IMG/VR virus record: IMGVR_UViG_3300044824_000082
Span: 4,652 to 68,651 of that record
DNA: 64,000 nucleotides
Direction: 5' to 3' (one strand)
From: a virus
Shown here: one piece after another, positions 20,453 through 38,656 of the stretch
Layout of the letters: each line of letters starts with the position of its first letter
How positions within the stretch are numbered: position 1 is the first letter of the stretch
The notes under the pieces: model-generated
What the model saw: only the letters and a program-made list of their open reading frames with translations
Told to the model about the DNA's origin: nothing
Database searches by the model: none
Position numbers and translations under genes: made by a program

Positions 20453-22840
20453 ATGGGGGCCGTAACAGTCACAGTAACCGTAGGTGGAATCCTTGACTCG
20501 GGATTCACACAAAGTTGGTTTTGTTCCGGGCCCAGTGGTACGGGCACAGTTACTTGGGCATTTCAGTGTGTTCAGCAAGGTGGCGGTACAATCGGGCCTT
20601 CTACGTACACCGCCGTAAATGCCAATACTCATACGTTTTACACAAATTGTACCCCCGGTATTTGGGGTGCCAACGTTGGCATGTCCGACACGAATGGACA
20701 GTACGGTAACGGTAATGCCAGCGCCACCATCGGTACGGGGTATCAAGTCGTCCAGAATGACACGGTTACAGTAACAAACGTAGGAACCACGGCGTCGTTC
20801 CTTATTATACCGACGGTGAACGAGATTGGGAATGTCAAGACGACTGACGCGATACAGATTTATCACGAAGGTCAGAAGATGCCGGGGTTCGACATTCAGA
20901 CAAGTCGCGGTATTAGTACGGCTGGCAGTCTTCAGTTCAAGACGCCAGCTACTTTTGGGGCTTCGATTAACTTGTATGATAGGATAGAGTTTGGGTATCG
21001 GGGGCACGAATCGTTTTACGGGTGGGCGTATTCGATTGACAAGAGCAGCGAGTACATTTATCAGATTACGGCTTACGATGGTGGGTATGGGATGGCGATG
21101 TTCGCCGGCCTCACGCAAGGTGTTATCTCGCGGGCGGGAGCAACGATGAGCGTGAGCGGGTTGTTGGGTAACTACGCGTTACAGGTGGTTGGTTTAGGGG
21201 CATCGAAATCAGACAAGTTGGGAGTCAACGTCGTACAGAGCGAACTCCCAGTCGTTTTCGGGTGGAACTTTTCTGGCGGACAGGTGTTGCAGAAGATTGA
21301 GGCGGTGGCGTTGGGGTTCGGTTACGTTTCGTACACGGACTATCTCAGCAATATGACGCTCTCGAACTATCAGATAGAAGCGGTGTACCCGTATGGTAGC
21401 GGTACGGTTGTCAGCACTACGCCGGTAGGAACGGTGTTGTTGCGGGAAAACACGGACGGATTCGTAGTTCAGTCCAAGAAGTTTAACCCCAGTGAGAAGT
21501 ATGGGTTCTGGCAAATGAACGGGTTGGAAGCCAGCGGGGCCACGCTTTCTGCGACAGTGGGAGTCACGCAGCCGCAGCGGACGATGGGTACGAACTGGTT
21601 ATTGGTTCAAGCGTCAGACGCGACATTGCTGGGAACCATCGCGAATACGTATTACGACGTCTTCGAGAACGGGGTTTGGACGGTTACGGCGTGGTCGAAG
21701 CGTTGGTTTGACACAAGCGGGGTAGATGTCGGAGGCAGTATCGCTTCGTACATCGGAGACGACAGGTATCTCATTATGTCATCGCCTTCGTTGGGGATAG
21801 CCGTAATGGATATGTCGGAAGGAGGGGTGATGTTTTTGACGGGCGGCGCGGTGAGTGCGACCTACGTTCGCAATTCTGAGAGCCCGCAAATCTGTGCTAT
21901 TCAAGGTAGTCGGATTTCGGAGGTTGGTGGGTTCTTAATCGGCGCCCCGGGAGTCCTTGGTACGATTGGAACGGCAGGGACGTTGGCGGGGCAGAGTATG
22001 GATTATGATGGTTTGGACACTTTGTACACGGCCACCCCAAGCGGGACAGTGTACGCGACGAACTGGTACAATGGGATAAGTTCGGTGGTGGCTACGATTG
22101 GTAGTTCGATTACTACGATACTGGCGCCTGCGCCCGGGGTAGCCTACGTGGGCACCCCGAGTGGGGTGGTTCGAGTGGGTGGCGGAACGATTGATGGAAC
22201 GAGCGGGTATCACGCGTATCGGATGTTCTACGATTCCACGAGCAATTTGGTGTACATTTGCGCGGGCACGAGCGGGGTAGTGTCCTTCTTGCTGGGGGCA
22301 ACCAGTACGTCGGGGACGCTCACGGTTAGTTATGCCGTTCCCGAGGGAGTGTTCATAGGCTGTGCCTTGCAAGATGGAAGTGGTGGAATCGTTTTGGGCG
22401 GGACGGTTAGTATAGCGACTTACACTACGCAGGTGATAAGTACGGTTACAGTTGGTTCTGGTACGGTAATTTGTGACATGGTGTACGACACTGCGTATTC
22501 GCAGTTGGCGGTATTGGCGCCGGTAAGTTCTGCGAATAGCACGTACGTCATGTTTTTGAACCCTACAGCATTGGGCACGCCCATCCGTACTGCGGTGTTT
22601 TCTGGTGTTGCGGACCAAAGAATGCGAGTAATCGACACGGTGATTTCGCGGCAGAACCTTTACACGTTACAGTTTGCGGACGGGACAACGTTGTACAACT
22701 GTATCGTGGCAACGGTTCAGGTTACGCAGATGGGGACGACAGTGACGTTTACGAGTGGGCAAGTGAGTGCGGGAGCGTTTGCGGGGCCGACGGACCCAAC
22801 GCAGCTTTCGCTGTGGAATGTCGTTACGACGATGACGTAG
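20453..22840 (+). CDS. putative tail-tip/baseplate hub protein with beta-propeller-like C-region
   Basis: YDRIEFGY..FYGW..ITAYD hub-like segment; beta-rich composition. Confidence 0.55.
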   Translation: MGAVTVTVTVGGILDSGFTQSWFCSGPSGTGTVTWAFQCVQQGGGTIGPSTYTAVNANTHTFYTNCTPGIWGANVGMSDTNGQYGNGNASATIGTGYQVVQNDTVTVTNVGTTASFLIIPTVNEIGNVKTTDAIQIYHEGQKMPGFDIQTSRGISTAGSLQFKTPATFGASINLYDRIEFGYRGHESFYGWAYSIDKSSEYIYQITAYDGGYGMAMFAGLTQGVISRAGATMSVSGLLGNYALQVVGLGASKSDKLGVNVVQSELPVVFGWNFSGGQVLQKIEAVALGFGYVSYTDYLSNMTLSNYQIEAVYPYGSGTVVSTTPVGTVLLRENTDGFVVQSKKFNPSEKYGFWQMNGLEASGATLSATVGVTQPQRTMGTNWLLVQASDATLLGTIANTYYDVFENGVWTVTAWSKRWFDTSGVDVGGSIASYIGDDRYLIMSSPSLGIAVMDMSEGGVMFLTGGAVSATYVRNSESPQICAIQGSRISEVGGFLIGAPGVLGTIGTAGTLAGQSMDYDGLDTLYTATPSGTVYATNWYNGISSVVATIGSSITTILAPAPGVAYVGTPSGVVRVGGGTIDGTSGYHAYRMFYDSTSNLVYICAGTSGVVSFLLGATSTSGTLTVSYAVPEGVFIGCALQDGSGGIVLGGTVSIATYTTQVISTVTVGSGTVICDMVYDTAYSQLAVLAPVSSANSTYVMFLNPTALGTPIRTAVFSGVADQRMRVIDTVISRQNLYTLQFADGTTLYNCIVATVQVTQMGTTVTFTSGQVSAGAFAGPTDPTQLSLWNVVTTMT

Positions 22841-22898
22841 GAAGGAAAGTATGAACACAAACCAAGATTTTAAATACCATGTTCTTCCTATTAATACC

Positions 22899-23504
22899 AT
22901 GCCATCTGGAATCTATCAGCGTACGCCGGAGCAGTTAGAAAGACTTCGAGAAGCGGGACGAAAGTTGGGTTCGGTTCAGGGCCCGAAGAATGCTAAGTCT
23001 GGCAGATTTCAGTCTGTTGAGTGGAAAGAGCGGGCGGCTCGACAGGGGCGAAAGAACGTTGAATCCGGGCTTTTGGAGCGGATTAGTCTGCCGTCACGGT
23101 TCAAGAAAGGCGAGATAAGAACGACAGCGCAGCGTGAGGCGAGTGCACGGGGCGGTGTGAAGACGATGCTCAAGATTCGCGGGCGTCAGGGGCCCAATGA
23201 AGAAGAGAAGCGGCTTCGTGCAGAATTGGATAAGTTGGGGATTGAGTTTAAACCGGAAGTGTATTTGGGTGATGGTATGGGAATTGCAGATGTGGTAGTT
23301 GGGAAGGTTGTGGGTGAGTTGGACGGCGGCGGGCATTGGGTAAATTTCGCGCGCAAGAAAGGGGTTACTGACGAAGAATATCGTTGCGGAATCGCGGCCA
23401 AAGACGCGAGACATGACAAGCGCAGGAGGCATAATGGTTACGTCGTGATTCGGGATTCGGACCCGATTCGATTGGCGAACAGGATTAAGGAGGTAGTACA
23501 ATGA
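22899..23504 (+). CDS. PD-(D/E)xK (Vsr/DUF559-like) homing-type endonuclease
   Basis: MPSGIYQRTPE N-terminus, basic repeats, ADVV..ELDGGGHW..KDARHD; own TTTTAAATA box; paralogue of 39264. Confidence 0.75.
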   Translation: MPSGIYQRTPEQLERLREAGRKLGSVQGPKNAKSGRFQSVEWKERAARQGRKNVESGLLERISLPSRFKKGEIRTTAQREASARGGVKTMLKIRGRQGPNEEEKRLRAELDKLGIEFKPEVYLGDGMGIADVVVGKVVGELDGGGHWVNFARKKGVTDEEYRCGIAAKDARHDKRRRHNGYVVIRDSDPIRLANRIKEVVQ

Positions 23505-24127
23505 ATACCAAAGTTGGGACCAACTGGCGAGGGTTTACGGTGGGGCACAGGATTTCGGGCCACGAGAAGTGCGGGCGCATGCACGGCCATAACCTTCGGG
23601 TGCGGGTAGAGGTAGAAGGAGACATTGACGCCAAGACGGGAATGGTGGTGGATTTCGGGGTGCTGAGCATGGACTTGGCAGAGATTGTCGAGCCGTGGGA
23701 CCACAAGTTCCTCGCGCCAAAGGATTCTGCGAGGTTGGGATGGTGGTACGGGGCGCAGTGGCTTGAGAAAGAAGCAGCATGCAGTACGGTTCTGCCATCG
23801 CGGGCGTACTTGATTGACTGGGGGTACGTGTTGCCGGCAGAAGACGTGGTGTTGTTGAACCTGTCTGTCATCTCGTCCGAGAATCTGGCGCACTGGATTC
23901 TGTGGCAGTTGATTACGAAGCCGTGGGCGATGGGCAAGCTGGTTCGGGTTCAGGTAAGCGAGAATGGCGAGAACATCGCGGAGGCAAGTCATTTTGTTCA
24001 GAAATACAGCAGCACGTCAAGTTGGACGTACACTGGACAGGGGCAGAATTGGTATGTTGGCCTCAATGCGAACAACGCGGCTGCGCCAGCGGGGAACTGG
24101 GTTCCGACATGGATTTACCCCCCGTGA
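23501..24127 (+). CDS. queD: 6-carboxy-5,6,7,8-tetrahydropterin synthase (PTPS/QueD)
   Basis: GHRI..KCGRMHGHN, GMVVDFG, WDHKFL, SSENLA, VSE motifs. Confidence 0.9.
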   Translation: MNTKVGTNWRGFTVGHRISGHEKCGRMHGHNLRVRVEVEGDIDAKTGMVVDFGVLSMDLAEIVEPWDHKFLAPKDSARLGWWYGAQWLEKEAACSTVLPSRAYLIDWGYVLPAEDVVLLNLSVISSENLAHWILWQLITKPWAMGKLVRVQVSENGENIAEASHFVQKYSSTSSWTYTGQGQNWYVGLNANNAAAPAGNWVPTWIYPP

Positions 24128-24170
24128 GGATGAACAGGTTTAAGTACGCGAACGGGTAATTGTTGTATCA

Positions 24171-27100
24171 ATGGCGGGCACGTTAACGTTCAAGGATAGT
24201 TTGGGAGGTTCAGTCGCAGCCTTCGAGAACGGAAGCGTTCCGGTGTCGATGGCCGTGCAAGGGACGGTTGTCGCTTCGTTGACAAGCCCGAACGACACGT
24301 TGACTTTCGGCGGCGGCGTGGGCGGGAGCATCACGGCGGACTTGAACCTCGCTAACCCGAATACGTGGACGGGCGCACAGACATTCAGTGGAGGAATTGG
24401 TGGCTCGTTCGCGGTGAATCCGGGCGGAACGGTTACGGCGGGAGTCTGGGCGGGAAGCAAGATTCCGAATTCCGAGTTGTCGGGGCCGTCCGTTACGACC
24501 ATTGCAGCGGGAACCGGAATTGGGGTTGCTTCCGGAGGCGGGGTTGGGCCGGCTACGATTTCAAATGCCGGTGTCGTGACGGTAAACGGTTTGACTGGGG
24601 CACCAGTGATTGCTGGCGGTGTTGGAGCAACCATTACTGCGGGCGGCGGAACGATAACGGTGGCGTTCACCGGCACGTCGGGGGTTGCTTCGGTAAATGG
24701 AGTGACAGGAAACCCGGTGATTGCTGGCGGGACGGGGGCTACGGTTACGGTGTCCGGTTCAACGATTACAGTCACTCCGACGGCAGTTCCTAACACAGCG
24801 TTGGCGGGGCCGTTGGTGAATGAGATTGTTGCGGGTTCGGGCATTACTATTGCGCCGTCCGGGGGAACCGGAACGGCAACGATTAGCGTGAGCAACTTTG
24901 TGTGGAAGGGGGCTCTTGGGGTGCCATTTGTTACGGTTTCGGCGGTGGGGACATCGACATCAACGTTGATTACAGTAATGAACAATGGCTGTAATTACGG
25001 GCCCGACACGCCGTTAACGGCAACGTGCGGGTTGCAAGAAGCGGAAAACACCGGGCTATCGTATTATGTGACAGCGGGAACGTACAATCTTGGAACCTCG
25101 CTTGTCGTCATCAATTCGAACAAGCAGATTTTCTGTGACCCCGGGGCGGTAATCAACGTGGCTTCGGGCGTGACGTTCCCAACGAAGGACGGTTGGAACG
25201 GAAGCACGGATTGGACGCAGATGGTAGTGTTTGCGAACTGTTCTAATGTGGATTGGTACGGTGGGATGTTGCAGAACCGGAACACAACGAATAACAGTAT
25301 CAGTGGATTTGTATTTGCGGGAAACACGTCAAATATCACTGTTTACAGCGACACAGTTCAGGGCATGACACGGTGGGCGCACTGGATTACTGGGTATGCG
25401 GCGATTGGCACGATTACGGCGGACGGCAACGTGTCGAACATTTCGATTATCTGCCCGACGGTGGTGAACTGTGGAAATACCACGACTCCCGACGGAGGAT
25501 TTCTCAAGACAGATTTGAACGCGACGACGGGAAGCATCTCCGGAATTTTCGTTCTTAACCCGCAGGGAACCGGGTTGAATTGTATGGGAATTGACTTTGA
25601 AAATGACGAGAGCAGCCCCGGGCTTTTGTCCAACGTTCGAATCATTGGCGGGAATCTGACGGCATCGAGCACGGTTTCAGCAGCGGGAGTAGGGTTGTTT
25701 GTCGAGGCGCAGCATGGTCTTCAGAGCGTTTCTGATATTGTCTTTAGGGACGTGAAGGTGAACGGGTTCACGGCGGGCTCGTATCTGTACACGGACAACC
25801 AGCGGGTAACGTACGACAATGTCACGTTCAACAGCCCGTTGAATGGAACGATTGGAGTGTTCATTTTGCCGGATAATGCCAGCACACTTTCGGTTCAGAA
25901 TCATTTCCAGATTCTCAATACGAAGGTTTTGGGATTCACAACGGCATACGAAGTCGACATGGTTCCGGGCTCGTCTGGAGTTGGTGTCAACGATGTCACG
26001 TTTGTGAACTGTGTCGCAGACGACAACGGCGCAGGAAGGATGACAGCGGGGCTTAAGCTTGTCAATGGCACCTCGAAGTGGATTAACACGCTTCACGCGG
26101 TGAACTGTAATTTCTCGCAGGTTGCGGCGGGCGGAACGGTTCTGGTTGAGAGTGGTTACAATTCGTCATACGCGACAGATGTGATTTTCGACGATTGTAC
26201 GGGAATCCCAAGCACGTTTTCGGGCGGGGTATCTCAGATTGTCGCGGGAACGGGTGTCTCGTTGAGTCCGGTGGGGGGAACCGGGACGGTAACAGTTTCG
26301 GTTACGGGGTTCTTGCCAGTTGGGGGCGCGGTTACATCGCTCAATGGGTTGCAAGGTTCTCTAACTGCAATCGGTGGAACCGGGGCCACGGTTACGACAG
26401 CGGGTTCGACAGTTATAGTTACGCCCACGGCGGTGCCTAACTCGGCGCTTGCGGGGCCGCTTGTGGCGGAAATCGTGGCGGGAACCGGCATCACGCTTTC
26501 TCCGGTAGGTGGAACGGGGACTGTAACAATTAATGCTTCGGGAACGCTTAGCGCAAGTTGGAATGTAGTGGGGGGAAGGCCGTTCTATACGTTCTCGCCA
26601 TCGACTACGGCGGACGGTTCGGACTTCATTGCGGGCTCGGATTTGATGAACAGTTTTGCGTCGTGTGTGGCGACATTGTGTTCGACTGTGACAGTGGGAG
26701 CCACGCTTTACATGAAGCCCGGAACGTACACGTTGAACGGGCCATTGTTTGTTACGGGGACATCCGAGCAACAGCCGTTACTTGTCATCGCAGACCCGGA
26801 AGCGAACTTTGTGATTGCGTCATCGCCTCCGGGGTGGGGTATTCAGTGTGGTTCGGGCACGCGGCGTCCGCATCTTATCTTTGCCAGCGCGTCTTATGTC
26901 GAGTGGCGGGGCGGGAAGTTCACGAGTTCGGTGGCCCGTGCGTCGCAGATTGGATACTTGGGCGGAATTCATATCGCGGGGGCGGTTGACCATCTTACGA
27001 TTCGTGACACGCATATTGGAGAAGCGGTAAACGGACTGTCGAACTTTGCGATTCACGCGACGGGCGGGTATGTGAATGGGTCCGGGTTGCCCACGGGGAT

Positions 27101-29555
27101 TTCAACGATTAACGCGCCGAGCACGGGATACTCGAACATCTTTTTGTACGACAATCGGTATAACTATTGTGGAGGAACGGGAACCGCCCTTACAGGAGAT
27201 GGTGGGGGAGAAGGCTGGCACAATGACAATAATTGGGGGAGCCTGAACGGGACGATTGCGCCACCGTGTGGCCCCGTGTTCTCGAAGAACTCGGTGGGCG
27301 TAAATATGCCGTGGTATGGTTTGGACGTTGCCAGTGGCACAACGATGGTGGGGCTGGTTTCGAGTATCTATGTTGATGGGATGTCTATTACTTTGAACCC
27401 CACCGTGGCGGGCACGTTAGCCATCGCATTGCAGTTGGAAGCGGGTCCGTATTTCTCAGGGGGTTCGCCTCCGATGTGTAACAACGTCAGCATTACGAAC
27501 TCGTATTTCTCGGGCGGGTGGAAGAACAGTATCGGTTATAACTGGGAGACAATCACTATCGAAAACACGACGTTTGCCAATGCGAATAACACCGGGCTCT
27601 TTGTGACTTGCGGGACAGGATTGCTTCAGAATGTTCAGTTGATTGGTGTACGGTGTTTGAACAATAACCAGAAGCTAAGTGGGGCGGGGGCGTTCAACGC
27701 AGGGCTGACGATTGGGGCCGTCAACGCAACCGACACGGGAACGTGTAACGGGGTGACAGTCATCGGCGGAGACTTTTCGGATTATCAGGCAACCCCGACC
27801 CAGAAGTACGGGATTTGTCCGTACAATGGTTCGACAATGAGTGTTCCTGCGGTGGTGGAGAACATCACGATTCTGTCGGGGTACACCGCGATTGGGAATA
27901 CCTCGGCAGCGGTTTATTCGGGCTCGAAGGCACCCGTTTATTCAAGTGGAGCCACCTCGCCAGTGGCGGCGGGTGTGGGAATCGCAGTTTCGACTGTCAC
28001 GGGCACGTTAACAGTTTCGGCGAGCAACGTGCCGTGGGACGTCGGGATTGGTAAGATAGGGTATTCGGTGTCGCCGGCTGGAACATCGACGGCGGGGATT
28101 ACAGTTCCGAATAACGGCGCAGACTTTGGACCCGACACGACATTGGGTTCGACGGTTCCGGGTGTTACAGGTACGCCGTACACGGCAACGAACGGAATCA
28201 ATGAAGCGGGCGCGGCGGCTCAGATTGCGAAGATGCCGAGCAACGTTTACATTTACGGCGGCCCCAATACGACAATTACGGTAACGTCTCAAGTCGTGTT
28301 TAAGAATGGTGTGAGTTACATTGGTGACGGAGTTCAGTTGTGTGCCGGTGGAGGGCTTTTGAACCCGTTCACGACAGACACCACGGCAGTGTACTTTAGA
28401 GGGAGGGTTCAGGGATTGGTGTTGAACGGCAATAACTACACGGGTACGACAGTGTTTACGATTGTGAACGCACAACGTTCGGTGTTCGAGTCGGTAGTAG
28501 TCGAAGGAGCCAACGCGACGCTGACAGCGGTTTCAGTGTCGAGCAGCCCGACAACGTACGCGAATCTGAACGCTTGGCCGCAGGTGGTTAACGTTTACGG
28601 CGGGACGGTTACGGGCATCACTCTTGGAACGGTTGCGTTGGGCGATACGGCGGGAGCATTCTGGGTGCCTTCGTTGGGTAGCATCACGGTGTCGTGGAGC
28701 GGCAAACCGTTGATATGGGCGTCGAACGGAATCGGGTGGTTCCTCACGTCGGGAACGAACGGCGCGACATCGCCGTGGGCAGGGAACTATAACTGTGGCG
28801 GTAACAATTTCATTGAGTGCACGGCGGAGACGTGCTCGGTTGGGTGGATTCAGTATGGGTTAACGTCTTCTACGCACGTCACTGACAACCACATCCACGA
28901 GTTGTACGTTCACGCGGCGAATATCCTCGGGATGGGATTTGTCTATGCCAGCGACACGAACACGTATGATAGGCTGGAAATGTCGTTGAGCAGTTCGGCC
29001 AATGGTACGGTGGGTGTCAATGGAACCGGCGCGGTGATGGTGGCGCTCAATATGTTGAACCCGACAGTCGAGGAGTACATCTACGCGAACCATATCTATC
29101 TCTGTTCGTTGGATACGTCGTACCCCGCGCAGCAAATCGGGTTCCAAGTCGGGTACAACTCGACGGATGCCAACGTCTGTGATAATTTCATGGGTGTGGG
29201 AAGCCTAACGGCGGTGGTGGTGCCGGAATCGAACGGTAGTAGATTCTATTGTTACGATTTCCATGAAGGACAGAAGATGGCTTACTGGGGCACGGGGAAT
29301 TACTATACGTGGTACACGGAGAGTGTCAGCGGGACAACGACAGCGTATTACTATACGAACTTGCCGGCGTTTGCGAAACTGGCGAACGTTACGGGGGGCA
29401 CGGGACTAACGGGAATCACAATGAACATCGGCACTGGGGCAGCGATTCCACTTGGTGGGACGACGGGGACGTACTTGTTACCTCCGGGTGCCACGTTGAA
29501 CTTTACGGGCGCCACGGGCAAGCCCACAGTTCAGACGCTTTTGCTGGGGCCGTAA
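24171..29555 (+). CDS. very long multi-module tail fibre/adhesin (1794 aa)
   Basis: N-terminus shared with 10382 (TLTxKDSLGG..AFE); repeated IVAGxG(I/V) linkers; NNGCNYGPDT and NNGADFGPDT modules; beta-helix segments. Confidence 0.75.
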   Translation: MAGTLTFKDSLGGSVAAFENGSVPVSMAVQGTVVASLTSPNDTLTFGGGVGGSITADLNLANPNTWTGAQTFSGGIGGSFAVNPGGTVTAGVWAGSKIPNSELSGPSVTTIAAGTGIGVASGGGVGPATISNAGVVTVNGLTGAPVIAGGVGATITAGGGTITVAFTGTSGVASVNGVTGNPVIAGGTGATVTVSGSTITVTPTAVPNTALAGPLVNEIVAGSGITIAPSGGTGTATISVSNFVWKGALGVPFVTVSAVGTSTSTLITVMNNGCNYGPDTPLTATCGLQEAENTGLSYYVTAGTYNLGTSLVVINSNKQIFCDPGAVINVASGVTFPTKDGWNGSTDWTQMVVFANCSNVDWYGGMLQNRNTTNNSISGFVFAGNTSNITVYSDTVQGMTRWAHWITGYAAIGTITADGNVSNISIICPTVVNCGNTTTPDGGFLKTDLNATTGSISGIFVLNPQGTGLNCMGIDFENDESSPGLLSNVRIIGGNLTASSTVSAAGVGLFVEAQHGLQSVSDIVFRDVKVNGFTAGSYLYTDNQRVTYDNVTFNSPLNGTIGVFILPDNASTLSVQNHFQILNTKVLGFTTAYEVDMVPGSSGVGVNDVTFVNCVADDNGAGRMTAGLKLVNGTSKWINTLHAVNCNFSQVAAGGTVLVESGYNSSYATDVIFDDCTGIPSTFSGGVSQIVAGTGVSLSPVGGTGTVTVSVTGFLPVGGAVTSLNGLQGSLTAIGGTGATVTTAGSTVIVTPTAVPNSALAGPLVAEIVAGTGITLSPVGGTGTVTINASGTLSASWNVVGGRPFYTFSPSTTADGSDFIAGSDLMNSFASCVATLCSTVTVGATLYMKPGTYTLNGPLFVTGTSEQQPLLVIADPEANFVIASSPPGWGIQCGSGTRRPHLIFASASYVEWRGGKFTSSVARASQIGYLGGIHIAGAVDHLTIRDTHIGEAVNGLSNFAIHATGGYVNGSGLPTGISTINAPSTGYSNIFLYDNRYNYCGGTGTALTGDGGGEGWHNDNNWGSLNGTIAPPCGPVFSKNSVGVNMPWYGLDVASGTTMVGLVSSIYVDGMSITLNPTVAGTLAIALQLEAGPYFSGGSPPMCNNVSITNSYFSGGWKNSIGYNWETITIENTTFANANNTGLFVTCGTGLLQNVQLIGVRCLNNNQKLSGAGAFNAGLTIGAVNATDTGTCNGVTVIGGDFSDYQATPTQKYGICPYNGSTMSVPAVVENITILSGYTAIGNTSAAVYSGSKAPVYSSGATSPVAAGVGIAVSTVTGTLTVSASNVPWDVGIGKIGYSVSPAGTSTAGITVPNNGADFGPDTTLGSTVPGVTGTPYTATNGINEAGAAAQIAKMPSNVYIYGGPNTTITVTSQVVFKNGVSYIGDGVQLCAGGGLLNPFTTDTTAVYFRGRVQGLVLNGNNYTGTTVFTIVNAQRSVFESVVVEGANATLTAVSVSSSPTTYANLNAWPQVVNVYGGTVTGITLGTVALGDTAGAFWVPSLGSITVSWSGKPLIWASNGIGWFLTSGTNGATSPWAGNYNCGGNNFIECTAETCSVGWIQYGLTSSTHVTDNHIHELYVHAANILGMGFVYASDTNTYDRLEMSLSSSANGTVGVNGTGAVMVALNMLNPTVEEYIYANHIYLCSLDTSYPAQQIGFQVGYNSTDANVCDNFMGVGSLTAVVVPESNGSRFYCYDFHEGQKMAYWGTGNYYTWYTESVSGTTTAYYYTNLPAFAKLANVTGGTGLTGITMNIGTGAAIPLGGTTGTYLLPPGATLNFTGATGKPTVQTLLLGP

Positions 29556-29567
29556 TGCGGAGTTGAA

Positions 29568-30635
29568 ATGTCGGGAAGTGCTGGTGACGTAACAGCGGGT
29601 GGGGCCGGCGTCCAAGCGGGCGGCGAACCTCTCACAGCGGCGCAGGAGACGAACTTTCTCGGCCCTGACAAGTTGGTGGGGTTGAGAATCTTATCGGCAA
29701 CCAGTCTGCGGGTGCTCTATTGGGAAAATGTGAAGAGTCTGGACGTTCAGCGAATGGCAAACTCGATTGTGGTGAGCATCGAGGAAGAGAAGCAGGAGGC
29801 CATTGGACTTGGGCGGGAGAGTTTCAAGGACGTGGACGTGCGGGCGGTGTTGTACATGCTGGAACAGGACCCGCTGGGGATTTCGGACGAGAACGCGTTC
29901 GAGGGTTACTTGCAGGTGATTCACGATGCGTTGACTCAGTACAGTCCGTACAGTGGCCTGTCCAGAGACACGGTTGGCGGGAACAACGTTGTCTGGGTGA
30001 AAATCGTGAACGAAAGGCGTGCCGAGGATGTGCGTGGAATCATCCTGTATGAGATTTCTTTTCAAGTGCGGATTTATGTGGGGCCCGGAACGGTGACGCC
30101 ATACGGGCAGAACGTGGTGCCACCTGTCATCACGACAGGCAATACGATTGTGACGGTGCCGGGTCCGGGAATCGTGATGGCGTCGTTGCTGATGATGGGG
30201 AGTCTGATGCAGGTGATGGCGCAGTTCCTCGCGGGATTACCGGCAGGCACGGTGAGCGCGTGGAACATCGTTCCGTTCGTCACTACGAAGTCGGTTGATT
30301 TGCAACGAGCAGGAAACACCGTTGCTATTGGAGCGCCCACGGGTTCGGGGCGTATCATCGGACTGGGATTGGGGCAGATGGGTTCGGGTTCGTACAGTCA
30401 GCAGCAAGTCACGGAATACACGTTCAAGTTGACGTTGTGGACGATTTCCGAGCAAGACATCGTAGCGGCAACGGATTGGATTACGGCGAACTCGCTGTTG
30501 TATTTCTTGAATCTGCCGTATGACGGAGGGCAAGTGGTAATGTCAAAGATGACGAGTTTCGGGCAGAAACAGAAAGAGCGTGGTGTCTGGTGGCGCACGT
30601 TGGATTTGATGCTTGAGGTGGTGATTGGGGTTTGA
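29568..30635 (+). CDS. putative tail completion/terminator-like protein with an internal duplication
   Basis: KSLDVQRMANSIVV..IGLG is repeated as KSVDLQRAGNTVAI..IGLG. Confidence 0.5.
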   Translation: MSGSAGDVTAGGAGVQAGGEPLTAAQETNFLGPDKLVGLRILSATSLRVLYWENVKSLDVQRMANSIVVSIEEEKQEAIGLGRESFKDVDVRAVLYMLEQDPLGISDENAFEGYLQVIHDALTQYSPYSGLSRDTVGGNNVVWVKIVNERRAEDVRGIILYEISFQVRIYVGPGTVTPYGQNVVPPVITTGNTIVTVPGPGIVMASLLMMGSLMQVMAQFLAGLPAGTVSAWNIVPFVTTKSVDLQRAGNTVAIGAPTGSGRIIGLGLGQMGSGSYSQQQVTEYTFKLTLWTISEQDIVAATDWITANSLLYFLNLPYDGGQVVMSKMTSFGQKQKERGVWWRTLDLMLEVVIGV

Positions 30636-30780
30636 GCGGGCGAAGGGGTGGGAGTAAGATTCGGCGCAATCGCGAAGACAAACAGGCACGGCGAGAAGAG
30701 TGGATACTGCGTCAGAGTCGGGAACGGAAACACGGAAAGCGGGGTAAAGGTTATATAGAAAGCGGGCAGTTTGGTAAGCG

Positions 30781-31347
30781 ATGACAAACGGAACACTTTC
30801 GGCCACGGTTCACGCGCAAGGTGCGCTCGTAAAGCCCCTTTTGGTTGATAAGGTAACGGGGGCCATCCCTGCGCTTCGTTGGCAACCGGACGAGGTGCTG
30901 TATCGTGTTTTCGATGTGAGTGCCGGAGCCTTGCGTATGATGTCGGTGCCAGCGGGGACAGGTGTAACGTCTGTGATTTGGCAGACGAACGAGGTTCTCA
31001 GTGCGGCGTATGACAACGTGAACAAGAAGCTACAGGTGAACGTAGTCGCGGCGAGTACTTTCGCGGCAACGTTGCTTCAGCCGAATGAGATTTGGCGGAA
31101 CGTTTTTGACCCTTCGACGGGAGTGCTCCGAGTGGCGAAAGTTAGTACGGGGGGAGGCCCGGTTGCGGGGCGGAAGTGGCAGGTGGACGAAGTGTTGAGT
31201 GGTTCTTATGACCCGGGGGCGAACGCTTTGCGGGTAGTCAGTGTCGGTGCGGGAAGCGGCCCGACAACGCAAATCCGGCAGCCGAACGAGGTTTTGAGTC
31301 TGTGCTACGACCCGAAGGCACACGCTATCCAAGAGACGGGGGTTTGA
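30781..31347 (+). CDS. five-repeat protein, Q(P/T/V)(D/N)E(V/I)...(F/Y)D
   Basis: five ~31-aa repeats visible; promoter GGTTATATA upstream. Confidence 0.7.
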   Translation: MTNGTLSATVHAQGALVKPLLVDKVTGAIPALRWQPDEVLYRVFDVSAGALRMMSVPAGTGVTSVIWQTNEVLSAAYDNVNKKLQVNVVAASTFAATLLQPNEIWRNVFDPSTGVLRVAKVSTGGGPVAGRKWQVDEVLSGSYDPGANALRVVSVGAGSGPTTQIRQPNEVLSLCYDPKAHAIQETGV

Positions 31348-31348
31348 A

Positions 31349-31753
31349 ATGCCGAACAACGACGACACGGTGAGCAAGTGCCGTCTTAAGTTGGCAACGC
31401 AAGAGGCGGTTACGGCGCTCAATGAGAAGGTTGAGATTTACAACCGGAACCTGCGGGAGACGATAGAGAAGAACGAGGAAGTTCGTAAGAACGAGTTTGC
31501 GAAATCCGATGCAACTTTGGATGTCAGGCTCGAAAGCATGAACCAGTTTCGGCACCAGATAGAACAAGAACGTTCGACTTTCATTACCCGCGACCAGCAC
31601 GACATTTTGCGGAGCGAGCTGATGCTCGAAATCAAGCCGCTCCAAATCGCGGCAGCCAACCGAGCCGGGGTAGCACAGGGCAGGGATTGGACATTGTACG
31701 TTTTGTTCGGGATACTTTCGTTTGTGGCAGTCGCTGGCCTGTTTATCCATTGA
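31349..31753 (+). CDS. coiled-coil protein with a C-terminal membrane anchor
   Basis: heptad-rich body; terminal WTLYVLFGILSFVAVAGLFIH. Confidence 0.65.
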   Translation: MPNNDDTVSKCRLKLATQEAVTALNEKVEIYNRNLRETIEKNEEVRKNEFAKSDATLDVRLESMNQFRHQIEQERSTFITRDQHDILRSELMLEIKPLQIAAANRAGVAQGRDWTLYVLFGILSFVAVAGLFIH

Positions 31754-31790
31754 GAAAGGTTTAAGTAGGCAGGAATAGGTAGATGTCTCG

Positions 31791-31859
31791 ATGACTGATA
31801 CGTATCGAGACTTGGTAATTACGGACGACAAGAATCGTCATCAAGTCTATTATACTTAG
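31791..31859 (+). pseudogene. orphaned 5' stub of the prohead protease gene
   Basis: encodes MTDTYRDLVITDDKNR, identical to the first 16 aa at 32416, then stops; keeps an AAAGGTTTAAGTAGGCAGG promoter. Confidence 0.9.
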
Positions 31860-31893
31860 ATACTATATACACCCCGATAACACTTAATTATCC

Positions 31894-32382
31894 ATGCCAC
31901 CCTTCAAAGATTTAACCGGACAGCGATTCGGCAGACTGGTAGTTGTTAGGTTTGTGGGAAGAGAACGATACAAAGGCGCACTTTGGAATTGTAAGTGCGA
32001 TTGTGGGAAAGAAAAAGTCGTTCGTGGTGGAAGTTTGGGGTTGGGAAAAACGAAATCGTGCGGGTGTTTGCAACGAGAGAATGGGGCCACTGTTGGGCAT
32101 TCTCGTTGGAAAGGCGGGAAGACATCGGACGGGTATGTTCAGATACAGCGGGATGGCAAGCATTTGTTGGAACATCGGATTGTTATGGAGCGGTATCTCG
32201 GGCGGAAACTTTTGGAGGGGGAGAACGTCCATCACAAGAACGGGATTCGAAACGACAACCGAATTGAGAATCTGGAACTGTGGTCAACGTGGCAACCGAC
32301 AGGACAACGAGTCGAAGACAAAACCGAATGGGCAATCAGGTGGCTGAAGCAGTACAAACCCGAAGTGATGAGGGGGCCGTAA
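31894..32382 (+). CDS. HNH homing endonuclease
   Basis: DLTGQRFGRL..WNCKCDCG..KSCGC; EHRIVME..VHHKNGIRNDNRIENLELW. Confidence 0.92.
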   Translation: MPPFKDLTGQRFGRLVVVRFVGRERYKGALWNCKCDCGKEKVVRGGSLGLGKTKSCGCLQRENGATVGHSRWKGGKTSDGYVQIQRDGKHLLEHRIVMERYLGRKLLEGENVHHKNGIRNDNRIENLELWSTWQPTGQRVEDKTEWAIRWLKQYKPEVMRGP

Positions 32383-32415
32383 GGTTTAAGTAGGCAGGGA
32401 GAGGTAAAGGGTTTG

Positions 32416-35277
32416 ATGACGGACACTTACCGAGATTTGGTCATAACAGACGATAAAAATCGTTTGGTTGCAGGGTTCGCCAACGTTGCTGTTCTGGACA
32501 GGCAAGGGGACATCGTTCCGACAGACGCAATGGCGAAGGCCATGCTGGAATACATGAAGCGGGGCGGGGTGGTTCTTTTGGGCCACGCCAACAAGCCGGT
32601 GGGCAAGGTAGTCCAGTGGAGCATCCAGAAGCCCGAAGGTAGCGATGCCGATGGAATCCATATCATTGCAGCCATTGACACGGGCACCGAGCCCGGAGAC
32701 GAAGCGTGGAAGAAGCTCGGGAACAAGACGATTACGGGGTTTAGTATTGGTGGTTCGGCCAAGGAAAGCGAGAACGTGCGAGACAAGGCGGCGGTAGGTG
32801 GAGTCGCGCGGGAGCTTAAGGGCGTGGAACTCCATGAGATTAGTCTGGTGGAGATTCCCGCAAATCAGTTGGCAACGGTGTCGGACATCAGCGTGGCGAA
32901 GAGTTGTGATAACGGGACGTGTAAGATGGAGAAGGAAGTTCATCGTGGCCCATTTGCTGCGAAGGAAGAGGCTGACAAAACGGCCCAGAAGTTGAAGCAG
33001 GAAGGCTGGGCAGTTTATCGTATTGTTCAGGACGCGGATGGATGGTACATTGATTTCGGTTCTAAAGAGAACCCCGCGAACGAAACCGGGCGGGAGGAAA
33101 TGCATCCCAAGACAAAACAGCCAGTTTTGATGGCGCAGAAGACTCTTGAAGACGTGAAGGCGATGGGGTTGGATTGGGAGTCTTCGAAGGAAGAGGCGGA
33201 AAAGGCGGCGCAGGAAATGAAGGCGGAAGGGTTCAAGGTTTACGAAATCGTTCCCGATGGGGACGAGTGGCGGATTGACTACGGGCGGGAGGAGAATCCA
33301 GCGCGTAAGACGGTAGATGAAAAGACAAAGTATCCAGACCCATACATTCCCGGGCAAACGATTGATTCGGCGGAGATTCATCGGAGGGCCGAGGAGCTTA
33401 AGCGGCGTGGGGAAGAGAAGGCCGAGGGAGCCCCCGAAGACCCCACGGTGAAGGCCGAAGGTCCGATAGCGTTGGAGCAAGACCCGAACTACGACCAGAC
33501 GAAGTACGGGGTTCAGTCGATGGGGAAGGACGCCGTGGAAAAGGGCGGCAACGAGCAGGTTCGGCGTAAGGTTGGATTCGAGATTGCGGGGGCGAGAGTT
33601 CGTTCGGTGTCCCCAGACGGTTCGCGTGGGACTTGGCACCGCATGACGGACAGCGAGCGGGGCTTGAATCGTTTGTATGGTGCGGGAGAGTTGTCAGCGG
33701 CAACGAACATCCCGAGCGGGTTCCAGCCGGCGCAACCGATTCCGAAGAAGTCAGTGGAGGAGAAGGATGCGGTATCCACGGGCGAAGCGGGGGTAGAGAA
33801 CGCGCGGTTCAGTCCTCCGCAGAAGCCCGAAGACATTGAGAAGCCGTTCAAGTCGCGGGCGCAACAGCGGTGGATGTTCTGGGCGGACCCGAAGATGGCG
33901 CGAGAGTGGGCGCACAAGACGCCGAACATTCGAAGTTTGCCTGAGCGTGCCAGCAAGAAGGATGTCATTGATGGAGACGAGGCACGTCCAGTCGGGGCAG
34001 AGGACGGAAGCAATCTGGTTCCCGAGGCGGATAACAAGAGCCATCCTGTAACGGGCGAAGAGGCGTTCACGGAGAGGGCGGAAGGTCCGCAGGGTGACAA
34101 GTACGGTGAGTTCGGTGAGAAGAGCGTCGAGAAGCTCAACCCCACAGACCAAGAGGCCGGCGATGGGACGTGTACGTGGTGCAAGGTGAAGACGAAGGTT
34201 CACGAAGACCCGCGTTCGGGCAAGCCGATTTGCGAGGCGTGCGCGGCGGAGTTACCGAACAAGGCGATGCAGCCCGAGCAGTTGAAGCCGGGCTATCAGG
34301 AGGGAAAGGAGTCTTCGACAGGCAAGCCCGTGATGCACGAACAGAAGGGCGAGTTCGAGTGCGAGACGTGCGGGAAGAAGCCGATGTCGTTCGAGGAGTG
34401 CGTGGCGCACGAGAAGACGTGCAAGGAGATGCCTCCCGACAGTTGTGACGAGTGCGGCAAGAAGGGAACGACTCGGCGCGGGTTGTGCGAGCAGTGCGAG
34501 GCCGACGCGGTGAACGAGGCGCGAGCCAAGAAGGGGCTCACGTTTAACAAGGCGGGCAAGTGTCGTGGGTGCGGATGTGCCGGGCACGAACTCGTTGACG
34601 GGCGGTATTGTCAGTCGTGCTACGAAGAGTTGCAGTATTTGATGGCCGAAGCCCGTGAAGAGTTCGGGCAGAAGAAGGCATTGCAACAGCGGACAGGGGT
34701 GCCGAGCACGATTCAGGTGGCGGGTGGAACGGCCACGTACGTTGGGACAGAGGTAGAAGACAAGAACGGGCGATGGGACGACAGCTACAAGACGAGCGAT
34801 GGGTACTGGGTGATTCATCACGGCTCGGTGCACGACGTCTATCAGAAGTCGGTAGAGAAGGAGCCGCGTGATGCCACGGACGATGCGAATGTCGGGCCGA
34901 CTGGATTGGCGGCGGAGCCAGCGTTACAGTCGTCTTTGGATGCGAAGAAGGAGGGTTCAGGGACTCCTGCGAAGGGTTCGGGTGGTAGAACTATCCCAGC
35001 TTCGGGCGGGCGAACGGTGAAGCCAAGCGGCGGGCGCACCACGAAGTTGTTGATGGCGTTGGCGGGCGTGCGGAAAGAAGAGAAGTCGGTGAGCAAGGAG
35101 TTGCGGTTGGTTCGGGCGTTGGCGGGAGTGGAGCTTGAGAAGTCCGGTGCGATGTGTAAGCGGTGCGGTTCAAGTCGTCGGCGGCTGTACAAGCGGAAGA
35201 AGGGAATGCTCTGCGGAAAGTGTGTCAAGGCCATCCGAACCCGTGCGTTAAAGCAACTGGCGGGTATCAAGAAGTAG
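32416..35277 (+). CDS. HK97-type prohead protease with a long modular C-terminal extension
   Basis: VAGFANVAVLDRQGDIV, LLGH..PVGK, ITGFSIGG, LHEISLVEIPAN. Confidence 0.88.
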   Translation: MTDTYRDLVITDDKNRLVAGFANVAVLDRQGDIVPTDAMAKAMLEYMKRGGVVLLGHANKPVGKVVQWSIQKPEGSDADGIHIIAAIDTGTEPGDEAWKKLGNKTITGFSIGGSAKESENVRDKAAVGGVARELKGVELHEISLVEIPANQLATVSDISVAKSCDNGTCKMEKEVHRGPFAAKEEADKTAQKLKQEGWAVYRIVQDADGWYIDFGSKENPANETGREEMHPKTKQPVLMAQKTLEDVKAMGLDWESSKEEAEKAAQEMKAEGFKVYEIVPDGDEWRIDYGREENPARKTVDEKTKYPDPYIPGQTIDSAEIHRRAEELKRRGEEKAEGAPEDPTVKAEGPIALEQDPNYDQTKYGVQSMGKDAVEKGGNEQVRRKVGFEIAGARVRSVSPDGSRGTWHRMTDSERGLNRLYGAGELSAATNIPSGFQPAQPIPKKSVEEKDAVSTGEAGVENARFSPPQKPEDIEKPFKSRAQQRWMFWADPKMAREWAHKTPNIRSLPERASKKDVIDGDEARPVGAEDGSNLVPEADNKSHPVTGEEAFTERAEGPQGDKYGEFGEKSVEKLNPTDQEAGDGTCTWCKVKTKVHEDPRSGKPICEACAAELPNKAMQPEQLKPGYQEGKESSTGKPVMHEQKGEFECETCGKKPMSFEECVAHEKTCKEMPPDSCDECGKKGTTRRGLCEQCEADAVNEARAKKGLTFNKAGKCRGCGCAGHELVDGRYCQSCYEELQYLMAEAREEFGQKKALQQRTGVPSTIQVAGGTATYVGTEVEDKNGRWDDSYKTSDGYWVIHHGSVHDVYQKSVEKEPRDATDDANVGPTGLAAEPALQSSLDAKKEGSGTPAKGSGGRTIPASGGRTVKPSGGRTTKLLMALAGVRKEEKSVSKELRLVRALAGVELEKSGAMCKRCGSSRRRLYKRKKGMLCGKCVKAIRTRALKQLAGIKK

Positions 35278-35315
35278 AACGGGCCTTTAAATAGGACGCA
35301 AACCCATATATTTAC

Positions 35316-35696
35316 GTGGAATCGAAATTGGTTCAGCGCGGTAGAAAGGGTTCATCGAAATTCCGAGATTTCCGGTTGACTCAAAGGCGCAGAGGAGTGA
35401 GAAAGAGTCAGCGTGAGTATTTCTTGAAGTCGAAGTACGGTTTGACTATTGCGGCATGGGAAGCTCTTTTCGAAGGGCAGGGAAGGGCCTGTGCAATTTG
35501 TTGTTCAAAATCTGCACGCGGTAAAGCGGGTGTGGGTTGGTGTACGGACCATGACCACGAAACAGGTGAGGTGCGTGGAATCATCTGTCAACCTTGTAAT
35601 TTGTTGGTTGGTTGGATTGAGAAAAGTGCCTGTCCCGAAGAAATTGCGGTAAGGGTGATGAAATATTTAAATCAGGCAAGGTTGCGGAAGGTATAA
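35316..35696 (+). CDS. endonuclease VII-like HNH nuclease
   Basis: KYGLT..QGRACAIC..DHDHETGEVRGIICQPCN. Confidence 0.9.
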   Translation: MESKLVQRGRKGSSKFRDFRLTQRRRGVRKSQREYFLKSKYGLTIAAWEALFEGQGRACAICCSKSARGKAGVGWCTDHDHETGEVRGIICQPCNLLVGWIEKSACPEEIAVRVMKYLNQARLRKV

Positions 35697-35699
35697 ATA
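35689..35699 (+). promoter_or_regulatory. TATA promoter of the scaffold-capsid operon
   Basis: AGGTATAAATA; ATG at 35723. Confidence 0.7.
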
Positions 35700-35722
35700 C
35701 CCCGAGTAGCATAGGATTTGGC

Positions 35723-36310
35723 ATGCCGAAGGCAGTTCGTAAGGACCCGGACCCGGCCGTTGTGCCAAAGCCGGTGGACGAGGAAGAGAAGAGTGAGCCT
35801 ATTAAGCCGCTCGCAGAGGAAGAGAAAGAGAACAAGGAGCCTCCGGGGCCACAGGAGCCAGTCATGGAGAAGGAACCGGACCCGGCGCCGAAGGAAGACG
35901 AGGAGTTCGAGGATGCGTTGAAGATGCTCGGTGAGCGCTTCGACAGGATGGAGAAGGCCATCACCTCGCTCGGTGAGGTTCTGAAAGCGAACTACACAAG
36001 CAAGCCGAAGCCGATGGACGCGGATTACCCGACGCCCCCGTTGGATGGCCCGAAGAGCGATGGGCTACAGGCTCCGAAGATTGACCAGGAAATCAACCCG
36101 GCGGCGAAGCCGTTCGGAAAGGGCAAGCCAGCGAGCGAGGAAGTTCGCAAGGCGGCACTTGCGGGAGCCGCGGACGGAAGCCGTGAGACGAAGCCACCGG
36201 TGGCGACAACGGAGGATTTGAGGGCAATGAGGTTGGCAATTTTGAAGGGCGAAACGAGCATTGCGAAAGAGAACGCCAAACTTGCACAGCGCAAGTATGG
36301 AGGTAACTAA
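35723..36310 (+). CDS. putative capsid scaffolding protein
   Basis: acidic/Pro-rich with coiled coil; lies between protease and capsid gene; TATAAATA promoter. Confidence 0.6.
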   Translation: MPKAVRKDPDPAVVPKPVDEEEKSEPIKPLAEEEKENKEPPGPQEPVMEKEPDPAPKEDEEFEDALKMLGERFDRMEKAITSLGEVLKANYTSKPKPMDADYPTPPLDGPKSDGLQAPKIDQEINPAAKPFGKGKPASEEVRKAALAGAADGSRETKPPVATTEDLRAMRLAILKGETSIAKENAKLAQRKYGGN

Positions 36311-36311
36311 G

Positions 36312-37550: not shown

Positions 37551-37636
37551 TGGGATAACCTCTCCTCAGTAATGCCAAACCCCTTCCACTAACCTATTCA
37601 CTAAACTTATATACTAAGAGAACCATACCTTTCTAC

Positions 37637-38383
37637 ATGGTATTCGAAGTAATCGACACCCCCGAAAAGGCATGGTTGTTAGGTTGGATTGCAACTGACG
37701 GGAACGTTGACAGGTATCAAGTCAGGATTATCCTGAAAGATGGCGACAGTGAACGTTACGTTTGTGACGAGTTCGTAAAGGTGGCCGGCGGCAAAGTGTT
37801 CTTGCGCGAAAAGACAAATGGGAAAGTAGAGCATTACAAGACGGTTACGTGGGAATTGAACGGGGTTGAAGAGTGTGAGAATCTCGTCAAACTTGGGATT
37901 GGCCCAAAGAAGTCATTGGTATTGGGTAAAGTGGCTGTTCCAGAACAGCTCCTTTGGCACTTCGTTCGTGGAGTGTTTGAGGGCGATGGTAGCGTTTGGC
38001 TGACAACGCAAACGGGGCGCGGCAGGCCGCAAATCTCGATTACAAGCGGCAGTAAAGTGTTCGCAGAATGGGTAGCCGAGATTACGGGCGGGAAGTTGTA
38101 TCCGAAGGAGAAGCCCCGGCGGAACACGTCGTACAGCATCGAGTTCGGCAACCGCGAGGTAATCGAGGCGTTTTACAAGCGGGCCTACGCAGACGCGGGT
38201 GAGTTCGTTCTTTTGCGAAAGAAGCAGAAGATTGAAGAGGGGCTCGGAGCATATTTCAGTTCTGAAGAGCGCGGTGAAATTGGACGGCAGAACGCAGTTC
38301 CGTGGGTAGAACAGTTCACGAAGAAGCACGGCATGAGTCCGATTGAGTGGAATCTGAAGAAAGGGGCGGGCCAATCACCTTAA
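37637..38383 (+). CDS. two-motif LAGLIDADG homing endonuclease
   Basis: AWLLGWIATDG and FVRGVFEGDGS; KKSL; LLRKKQK. Confidence 0.9.
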   Translation: MVFEVIDTPEKAWLLGWIATDGNVDRYQVRIILKDGDSERYVCDEFVKVAGGKVFLREKTNGKVEHYKTVTWELNGVEECENLVKLGIGPKKSLVLGKVAVPEQLLWHFVRGVFEGDGSVWLTTQTGRGRPQISITSGSKVFAEWVAEITGGKLYPKEKPRRNTSYSIEFGNREVIEAFYKRAYADAGEFVLLRKKQKIEEGLGAYFSSEERGEIGRQNAVPWVEQFTKKHGMSPIEWNLKKGAGQSP

Positions 38384-38408
38384 ATACACCCGAATCTTAC
38401 CCCAAATC

Positions 38409-38652
38409 ACGGAGGGATGGGGAGGGTAACAGCTACACAGCGCTGTGGAGTAACACCGCAGAACGGGAAAGGACCCGGTGCGGCCCGTGTGTTCGGGCTT
38501 ACCCCGGGAGAAACTGCTCTGTGCCACGGTGTATGTCCGGGGGTAGTGCCCGGCCTCCTCTACCTTTACGAACAAACTGGGAGTATGATGGCGTGTCGTG
38601 GTTGCTTGATTCACCCTAAGCGCGGCTATATGTAGTCGCCTGCGGGTTGTTT
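38409..38652 (+). ncRNA. putative structured non-coding RNA
   Basis: TATA-like CTTAAATA at ~38379 with no ATG at the usual spacing; several helices foldable by eye; no convincing ORF. Confidence 0.4.
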
Positions 38653-38656
38653 AACT

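Follow-up and report, generated by a model that had tools for sequence, protein, structure and literature searches.

In the genes atp6, atp9, cox2 and nad3 of Glomus and in atp6 of Allomyces macrogynus, a mobile endonuclease open reading frame (mORF) brings with it a foreign copy of the C-terminus of the gene, and the native C-terminus stays downstream, unexpressed and matching insert-free relatives, according to the accessible part of the published account (PMC3630166). The locus described here, together with two others in the same genome, appears to follow the known logic of free-standing homing-endonuclease cassettes, mirrored to the 5′ end of the gene. It is a block of 650 nucleotides (nt) carrying a predicted nuclease gene, 11 nt inside the queD gene of a virus that is treated here as an uncultured tailed archaeal virus from peat. 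The window, that is, the whole stretch of DNA analysed, comprises 64,000 nt (bases 4652–68651 of the 68,651-nt IMG/VR virus record IMGVR_UViG_3300044824_000082, CheckV completeness 47%), and all coordinates given are those of the window.

Free-standing homing endonuclease genes of the T4 type occupy intergenic positions or divide a gene into two parts that still function, and descriptions of the Seg, Mob and Hef genes of this group are not known to include the duplication and replacement of a gene start. As far as the available portions of the reports go, T4-type intronless homing spreads by break repair with co-conversion of the flanks (PMC13096335, PMC3239194), enzymes of the Hef type have been assigned to the Vsr-like family, and the homing enzyme I-Bth0305I, of the EDxHD family, is encoded in a group I intron and has relatives in split inteins (PMC3239194). 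The literature searched, which did not extend to subscription journals, yielded no account of cassettes that replace gene starts in phages or archaeal viruses.

At queD, the block is exactly absent in a related virus, the native start of the gene is left as a dead stub, and queD restarts from an imported copy. We read the block as a free-standing homing-endonuclease cassette, made up of a promoter, a predicted nuclease, a ribosome-binding site and a replacement queD start, and put the probability of this reading at roughly 75%.

The queD insert and its empty site

Sampled words of the virus are all present in one peat metagenome run (X1, which may be the source of the record) and in shares of 0.47 and 0.21 in two others (X2 and X3); runs X4 and X5 carry small shares (0.14 and 0.10), which are uninformative on habitat or strain. 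The contigs of four runs were aligned to positions 21500–41000 of the window, X2 coming from another sample and another study. The locus comprises the following features (aa, amino acids; BRE, transcription factor B recognition element).

22851–22861, + strand: stub ATGAACACAAA (ATG AAC ACA AA), the native first 11 nt of queD, identified by an X2 contig
22862–23511, + strand: inserted block of 650 nt, with boundaries up to 2 nt leftward (22860–23509), delimited by the same X2 contig
22862–22877, + strand: putative BRE/TATA-type promoter of the queD cassette, CCAAGAT-TTTAAATA-C, the box ending 22 nt before the nuclease ATG
22899–23504, + strand: predicted nuclease 1, 201 aa, with N-terminal helical repeats containing GRKNVESGxL and a C-terminal Vsr-like domain
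23501–23511, + strand: imported queD start ATGAATACCAA (ATG AAT ACC AA)
23501–24127, + strand: queD-like gene of the PTPS family (PF01242, E = 1.4e-22)
20453–22840, + strand: upstream gene of 795 aa, structural-looking, with only a weak YQBQ-like Pfam match (E = 0.0012)

The evidence that carries the finding is an X2 contig of 293 nt (depth 2.9), which follows 22715–22859 with 10 differences and then 23510–23652 with 9, so that exactly 650 nt are skipped, two letters at the joint fit either side, and 19 differences fall within 288 aligned nt. Since the contig joins 22859 to 23510, the insert is placed at 22862–23511, and in this register it extends from the first C of the 16-mer CCAAGATTTTAAATAC to the second copy of the first 11 nt of queD. 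In the X2 allele the stub provides the start, and the first residues encoded are likewise MNTKVG. As this allele goes from the stub straight into queD, the X2 contig is an insert-free allele of queD and the stub is a true remnant of the queD start. The stub and the imported start are equal at 9/11 positions, both mismatches being synonymous third positions, and the stop codon of the upstream gene (TAG, 22838–22840) overlaps GGAAGG (22840–22845), the ribosome-binding site of the original queD start. It is unlikely that the contig is an assembly chimera, because the repeat shared by the two sides is only 11 nt long with 2 mismatches, far below the 31-letter words of the assembler (k = 31), and because the contig stems from a visibly different strain.

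The initial annotation had offered the queD stub as a third case of a pattern in this genome, and the sequence statements on which it relied (the stub, the queD start, the 16-mers and the protein motifs) all hold. In a scan of the first 30 residues of each of the 94 + strand open reading frames (ORFs) against its own upstream 1.5 kb, queD ranks 23rd (score 31, median 27), so the 11-nt stub is not significant by itself; it is the X2 contig that bears the proposal out.

At the right end of the block, an AAGGAGG ribosome-binding site for the new queD start (23487–23493, + strand) lies within the last nuclease codons and the nuclease 1 stop codon, TGA, overlaps the queD ATG; queD thus follows the nuclease as the second of two coupled cistrons. 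Non-coding sequence makes up only 44 nt of the block. Because the reading frame of the nuclease is open through the stub, gene callers give a 217-aa product, P0001. This public gene call begins in the queD stub, its first 4 codons being those of queD and the next 12 translated promoter, and is an annotation artefact of a sort typical for these cassettes.

Sister cassettes in the same genome

In the scan that placed queD 23rd, the top two ranks among the 94 ORFs (scores 84 and 68) fell to two other genes, that of the prohead protease and that of the release factor aRF1. Both stand behind a nuclease gene of their own:

31756–32463, + strand: sister case 1, an HNH gene at 31894–32382 (PF13392, E = 2.2e-10) before the prohead-protease gene at 32416–35277
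39112–39940, + strand: sister case 2 (aRF1 block), with the native promoter at 39112–39119, a 25-codon stub at 39147–39221 and predicted nuclease 2 at 39264–39857

In case 1, an 83-nt direct repeat (31756–31838 and 32381–32463, 80% identical) corresponds to the promoter and the first 16 codons of the protease gene; among the 16 shared codons, 6 are identical, 10 carry synonymous differences and none a non-synonymous one. An empty site is present here as well: an X2 contig joins 31832 to 32458 and skips 625 nt, equal to the spacing of the repeat. Its left part lies on the stub copy, with one difference (31799) among those listed, 50 across the stretch being unlisted. Because this insert-free allele lies on the stub copy, the imported protease start is taken to be a foreign copy.

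Case 2 has the order promoter, stub, 16-mer (39227–39242), nuclease 2 and imported aRF1 start (39861 onward). The stub ends in TAG at the point where the working copy has TAC, and but for this TAG it is in frame with nuclease 2; the two aRF1 starts agree at 43/81 nt. X2 is without cover over 37775–39727, and X3 has only loose ends near 39033–39065; a database protein 80% identical to the viral aRF1 (P0022) is without the N-terminus and so is uninformative on the native aRF1 start. The left boundary of such elements had been placed just upstream of their own promoter, which agrees with what is seen: the X2 contig sets the left edge of the queD block, with a latitude of 2 nt, at the initial C of CCAAGA-TTTAAATAC, and the aRF1 block has its left edge at the CCAAGA motif within about 3 nt, judged by the end of the stub homology.

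Exact presence or absence at a single site between close relatives was thus found for the queD block (650 nt) and for the HNH block (625 nt). In both, the version found in the insert-free relative is that of the stub, the diverged copy being the working one that follows the nuclease. Altogether, this one genome carries what are predicted to be three cassettes of a single architecture with nucleases of two classes, Vsr-like and HNH, and all three blocks may be read as free-standing homing-endonuclease cassettes that enter the 5′ ends of genes with a replacement start. Locus searches with queD, nuclease 1, aRF1, the family alignment or the protein P0010 gave no relatives among viral, metagenome and genome contigs.

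A fourth nuclease gene, of the LAGLIDADG type (37637–38383, in window segment 37551–38400; PF14528, E = 9.6e-7), lies between genes with its own AT-rich promoter, and no stub was found for it. Because one X2 contig ceases to follow the window immediately after 37550, the LAGLIDADG block is probably optional too.

Predicted nucleases and the cassette promoter

Nuclease 1 has no Pfam match and no relatives by word search. A HMMER scan of 1.84 billion representatives gave 16 proteins at E ≤ 1e-3, 13 of them at E ≤ 1e-10. In 14 aligned proteins of this family, residues D147, E156, D158, H162, D185 and D189 (numbering of the 217-aa product) are invariant, and repeated GRKNVESGxL units occur in the N-terminal half of several of them. 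A start of the form MP(S/K/T)G(I/V)Y is present in 4/14, the protein of the window included, where it coincides with the ATG at 22899, which favours 22899 as the true start of nuclease 1. Five of the 14 family members match DUF559 (PF04480) at E ≤ 1, the best at 0.0011; the protein of the window itself matches no family. Nuclease 2 has a weak match to Vsr (17.7 bits against a cut-off of 27) and three relatives (P0003–P0005).

The AlphaFold model of nuclease 1 has a mean pLDDT (predicted local distance difference test score) of 75, and from residue 120 onward the values exceed 87. By Foldseek, I-Bth0305I (3r3p) and Vsr (1cw0, 1vsr) take the first four places among its PDB matches, with probabilities of 0.98–0.99, E-values of 0.05–0.1 and a template modelling score (TM-score) relative to the target of up to 0.61. 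The model of nuclease 2 has the same four best matches, at E = 0.01, and for the two models together the probabilities are 0.97–1.00. As the top match of both models, a Vsr/I-Bth0305I-like fold is predicted for the two nucleases. Neither has a NUMOD match in Pfam; N-terminal helical repeats precede the nuclease domain.

The two proteins had been taken for paralogues. They do share the motifs MPSGIYQRTPE / MPKGVYVRSPE and GRKNVESGLLERI / GRRNVETGFLDKI (nuclease 1 / nuclease 2), and the profiles of their families can be aligned along 41 columns where the nuclease domain begins, at a probability of 78% (E = 1.8e-5); in a direct BLASTP comparison (E = 7e-6) the identity is 26% and confined to the N-terminal part. 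They are remote relatives within one superfamily that share a predicted Vsr-like fold, and not close paralogues. Nor does the MP(K/S)G(I/V)Y start hold as a trait of their family. Among metagenome ORFs that begin with MP(K/R/C/T)G(I/V)Y.R, six (L006, L012, L013, L017, L020 and L023) were scanned against Pfam, giving four HNH genes (three with NUMOD3), one Endo VII gene and one without a match. Because it also heads HNH/NUMOD3 and Endo VII genes, the MPxG(V/I)Y N-terminus would be a widespread DNA-binding module that occurs across nuclease classes.

The 16-mer reads CCAAGATTTTAAATAC at 22862–22877 and CCAAGAATTTAAATAC at 39227–39242, with 15/16 positions in agreement, and with up to 2 mismatches these are its only two matches in the window, against 0.03 expected (0/100 shuffles reach 2). 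Its octamer TTTAAATA occurs 8 times (1.02 expected), and all five + strand copies lie 22–27 nt upstream of a start codon. This is the kind of spacing to the start codon that archaeal TATA boxes have on leaderless transcripts, and it is because of this match to archaeal TATA geometry that the virus is read as a tailed archaeal virus. CAAGA precedes the octamer at 3/5 of the + strand sites, namely the two Vsr-like cassettes and position 4107; in the other promoters of the virus, a purine-rich sequence of the AAAGG type mostly stands where CAAGA sits. The upstream regions of the two Vsr-like nucleases are collinear: in both, CCAAGA lies 37 nt upstream of the ATG, and 10/21 spacer bases are equal. 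These features identify the 16-mer, on sequence grounds, as the likely BRE/TATA-type promoter of the cassette itself, not as a family mark.

Database scans agree with this interpretation. In IMG/VR, the 16-mer by itself is matched 92 times, in 91 loci, about as often as a hand estimate would expect by chance, and none of the 92 lies upstream of a relative of either nuclease, so that CCAAGA(T/A)TTTAAATAC, which the initial annotation had regarded as the defining signature of a mobile nuclease family, is not supported as one. Scans of viral contigs for the 16-mer followed by an MPxG(V/I)Y start, or for the TATA box followed by the same start, gave no matches. In metagenomes, the latter pattern was found at 23 loci; CCAAGA precedes the box in 0/23, and only L023 resembles nuclease 2, over the N-terminal module.

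In a second pair of promoters (38381–38420 and 39112–39150) the likeness extends beyond the TATA box, over TTAAATAC, then about 8 nt, then TCTTACCC(C/T)AA(A)TCACG ahead of the ATG. The pair hints at a class of promoters whose initiator region is conserved, and the nuclease promoters bear a loose resemblance to it.

The wider occurrence of start stubs was assessed in 47 IMG/VR loci (39 non-identical) with distant Vsr-like relatives, found by means of the nuclease 2 alignment, using 900 nt on each side of the nuclease in all frames, with reversed-sequence controls and the longest exact repeat. Start stubs are in 0/39, in a test that is blind to stubs shorter than about 10 codons and in which the relatives are remote and mostly on phage-like contigs. 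Stubs can thus hardly be called a trait of the nuclease family, the more so as the HNH cassette has the same build, and neither the signature nor the stub finds evidence beyond this genome as a family-defining feature in the sequences compared. A flanking duplication was detected in 1/39 (L159), where the protein score is 56 against 34 and the longest exact repeat is 30 nt, the controls reaching 11 at most. On this AT-rich IMG/VR contig (1486–3528), a Vsr-like/DUF559 nuclease gene (2527–3495) follows a folE2 GTP cyclohydrolase gene, and a 39-nt copy (95% identical) of the 3′ end of folE2 lies just after the nuclease. From its sequence, L159 would be a 3′-end, fungal-type version of the same trick, again in a gene of the 7-deazaguanine/folate pathway.

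Proposed entry of the cassettes, rival explanations and viral context

If the queD block is a homing-endonuclease cassette, the predicted nuclease would, during co-infection, cut queD alleles that lack the insert, at the position of the stub/insert junction or close to it, and the break would be repaired by copying from the cassette-bearing genome. The start would be duplicated if the cassette had earlier sat directly upstream of a diverged queD copy. At the first entry into the lineage, the right side would have recombined by homology and the left broken end would have been joined illegitimately, sparing the first codons of the recipient; since then, the stub would be part of the left homology arm, and ordinary two-sided homing could carry the whole arrangement. 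The carrier may be protected from its own enzyme by the split target site and by the synonymous changes in the imported start. Import with the cassette is preferred over duplication on the spot because differences that are synonymous only mean working genes in separate lineages.

The X2 contig that bridges the queD junction is the most diverged among the listed pieces (19/288, as compared with 0/487 at 23952–24438 and with 25/585, 13/535, 2/539 and 0/707), and the X2 and X3 strains share variants at 22720–22753 that are absent from the window. The divergence near the junction is no more than suggestive of co-conversion on both sides, but diverged patches also occur elsewhere, for example at 33864–34368. 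Inside that patch of dense differences, a 94-nt stretch of the protease/capsid gene (34160–34255) is swapped in X2 for a diverged stretch of equal length, which points to mosaic recombination between strains.

Several observations weigh against our interpretation of the block. No donor lineage was found; the empty site at queD rests on one 293-nt contig of depth 2.9 from one run; and none of the 39 distant Vsr-like relatives in the IMG/VR flank test has a start stub. Sequence homology of the nucleases is weak, nuclease 1 being without a Pfam match, nuclease 2 below the cut-off, and the Foldseek E-values between 0.01 and 0.1, and the family profile of nuclease 1 gave no significant chain against the PDB (the best, at 0.38, is unrelated). 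Moreover, a left end joined illegitimately would give no reason for both Vsr-like cassettes to share the promoter base at which they start, and the codon phase as well. A different view of the Vsr-like cassettes is that they would be one mobile unit with a fixed left terminus, the first BRE base, that moves between the 5′ ends of unrelated viral genes, picks up each start at its right end and places queD and aRF1 under its promoter. We consider this unlikely; if true, the unit would be a mobile cassette of promoter and nuclease that rewires the expression of the genes it enters, and it would move by a mechanism with a defined end, of a kind for which homing endonucleases offer no described example.

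A less probable account takes the duplication for that of a target site, generated in place through staggered cuts or the transposition-like insertion of a promoter-nuclease unit with fixed ends, after which the copies would have diverged. It is compatible with the observation that both Vsr-like cassettes begin at the same CCAAGA base, 37 nt before the ATG, and that both junctions fall after the second codon base, which looks like a defined left end. However, the lengths of the duplications differ in the three cases (about 11, 80 and 83 nt), the blocks contain no transposase or integrase and no terminal inverted repeats, and the coding copies in case 1 differ only synonymously (10/16 codons), with the insert-free allele matching the stub and not the working copy.

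The nuclease could also be an ordinary accessory gene, in a moron-like promoter-gene cassette serving, for example, the exclusion of rivals and shuffled by recombination, of which the stub would be a by-product. That the function of the nuclease is here a prediction from sequence, that its family is a small one, with 16 members at E ≤ 1e-3 in 1.84 billion representatives, and that the cassette has a promoter of the virus type would all suit such a gene, but the block is present or absent in near relatives with a precision of 2 nt, one architecture recurs in three nuclease genes that belong to two catalytic classes and are accompanied by a fourth, LAGLIDADG gene, and the predicted fold and domain order match those of a proven homing enzyme, as far as the available text on it goes (PMC3239194), so that we give this explanation little credence. 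Finally, the notion that ORF 22851–23504 is a single ordinary gene from 22851 whose likeness to the queD start is due to chance, to which the frame open from 22851 with a ribosome-binding site ahead, the P0001 gene call starting there and the unremarkable rank of the stub (23/94) might lend themselves, is very improbable, since it is contradicted by the X2 allele that joins the stub directly to queD, since the MP(S/K/T)G(I/V)Y start of 4/14 aligned proteins coincides with ATG 22899, and since a TATA box lies 22 nt before 22899, as it does for nuclease 2.

Two further candidates were rejected. An intron finds no support, with no Rfam family, no junction pairing suggestive of a bulge-helix-bulge site, only 44 nt of non-coding sequence and a nuclease gene that is an ORF apart, with its own start. 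An Rfam scan of 22300–40300 detected no intron and nothing at E ≤ 1 save a chance match to an internal ribosome entry site, and pairing at the queD junction is no better than in shuffled sequences (−13.6 against a mean of −15.9, standard deviation 2.7), the junctions lying within about one standard deviation. The absence of intron-like RNA and of junction pairing is in keeping with the description of the element as non-splicing from the outset. A transposon or insertion sequence was rejected because the block ends lack terminal inverted repeats, because the duplications are of unequal length (about 11, 80 and 83 nt) and because the nuclease is the only ORF of the block.

Taken as homing-endonuclease cassettes, the blocks resemble the fungal mORFs in several respects, within what the accessible part of that account describes (PMC3630166): an intronless endonuclease gene lies inside a protein-coding gene and supplies a diverged duplicate of the end that it displaces, and the original end persists as an unused remnant that matches insert-free relatives, the differences being largely synonymous. 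Both marks of such hybrids, a carried diverged duplicate and a native copy that matches insert-free relatives, are seen for queD and for the protease gene. In mORFs, however, it is the 3′ end that is replaced, whereas here it is the 5′ end, so that the blocks are not members of this group in its strict, mitochondrial 3′-end sense. Moreover, mORFs are often fused in frame to the host gene, whereas here nuclease and host gene are two cistrons, the nuclease coming first and under a promoter of its own, and they encode LAGLIDADG or GIY-YIG enzymes in mitochondria, whereas the enzymes here are predicted to be Vsr-like and HNH and occur in an archaeal virus. Given this mirror image, the proposal of an undescribed class of mobile element was overstated.

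With the free-standing Seg, Mob and Hef genes of the T4 type the blocks have in common that stand-alone nuclease genes are optional between close relatives, insofar as the available portions of the reports describe them (PMC13096335, PMC3239194). The domain order of the modelled nucleases, with a C-terminal Vsr-like fold (the best or joint-best PDB match) after putative N-terminal DNA-binding repeats, is like that given for I-Bth0305I and the EDxHD family in the accessible text of PMC3239194; in contrast to this intron-encoded enzyme and its relatives in split inteins, the genes described here are free-standing. A further difference is that the family profile of nuclease 1 is without detectable sequence similarity to I-Bth0305I.

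Together with the empty site, the queD cassette shows how a nuclease gene with neither intron nor intein can enter a coding sequence without killing the gene, namely by means of a replacement start. The presence of three cassettes from two nuclease classes in one virus suggests that viruses commonly use this way of entry; its mechanism lends itself to a direct test, given the empty site and the three parallel cases, with a precise target site that can be examined for a new Vsr-like nuclease subfamily. The invaded genes, the viral release factor included, now sit behind the promoters of the cassettes. For annotation, the consequences are false N-terminal extensions such as that of P0001, short orphan ORFs, and chimeric gene starts that may mislead phylogenies.

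As for the virus itself, the long ORFs of the window are all on the + strand, and the record encodes a prohead protease (PF04586), a tail tube protein and a family B DNA polymerase. Its release factor is of the archaeal/eukaryotic type (aRF1), with named cellular relatives in metagenome-assembled genomes of Thermoplasmata and Methanomassiliicoccales at 36–45% identity. The gene opens a translation module (39861–45214), in which the viral aRF1 is followed by an array of 22 tRNA genes (42134–45214).

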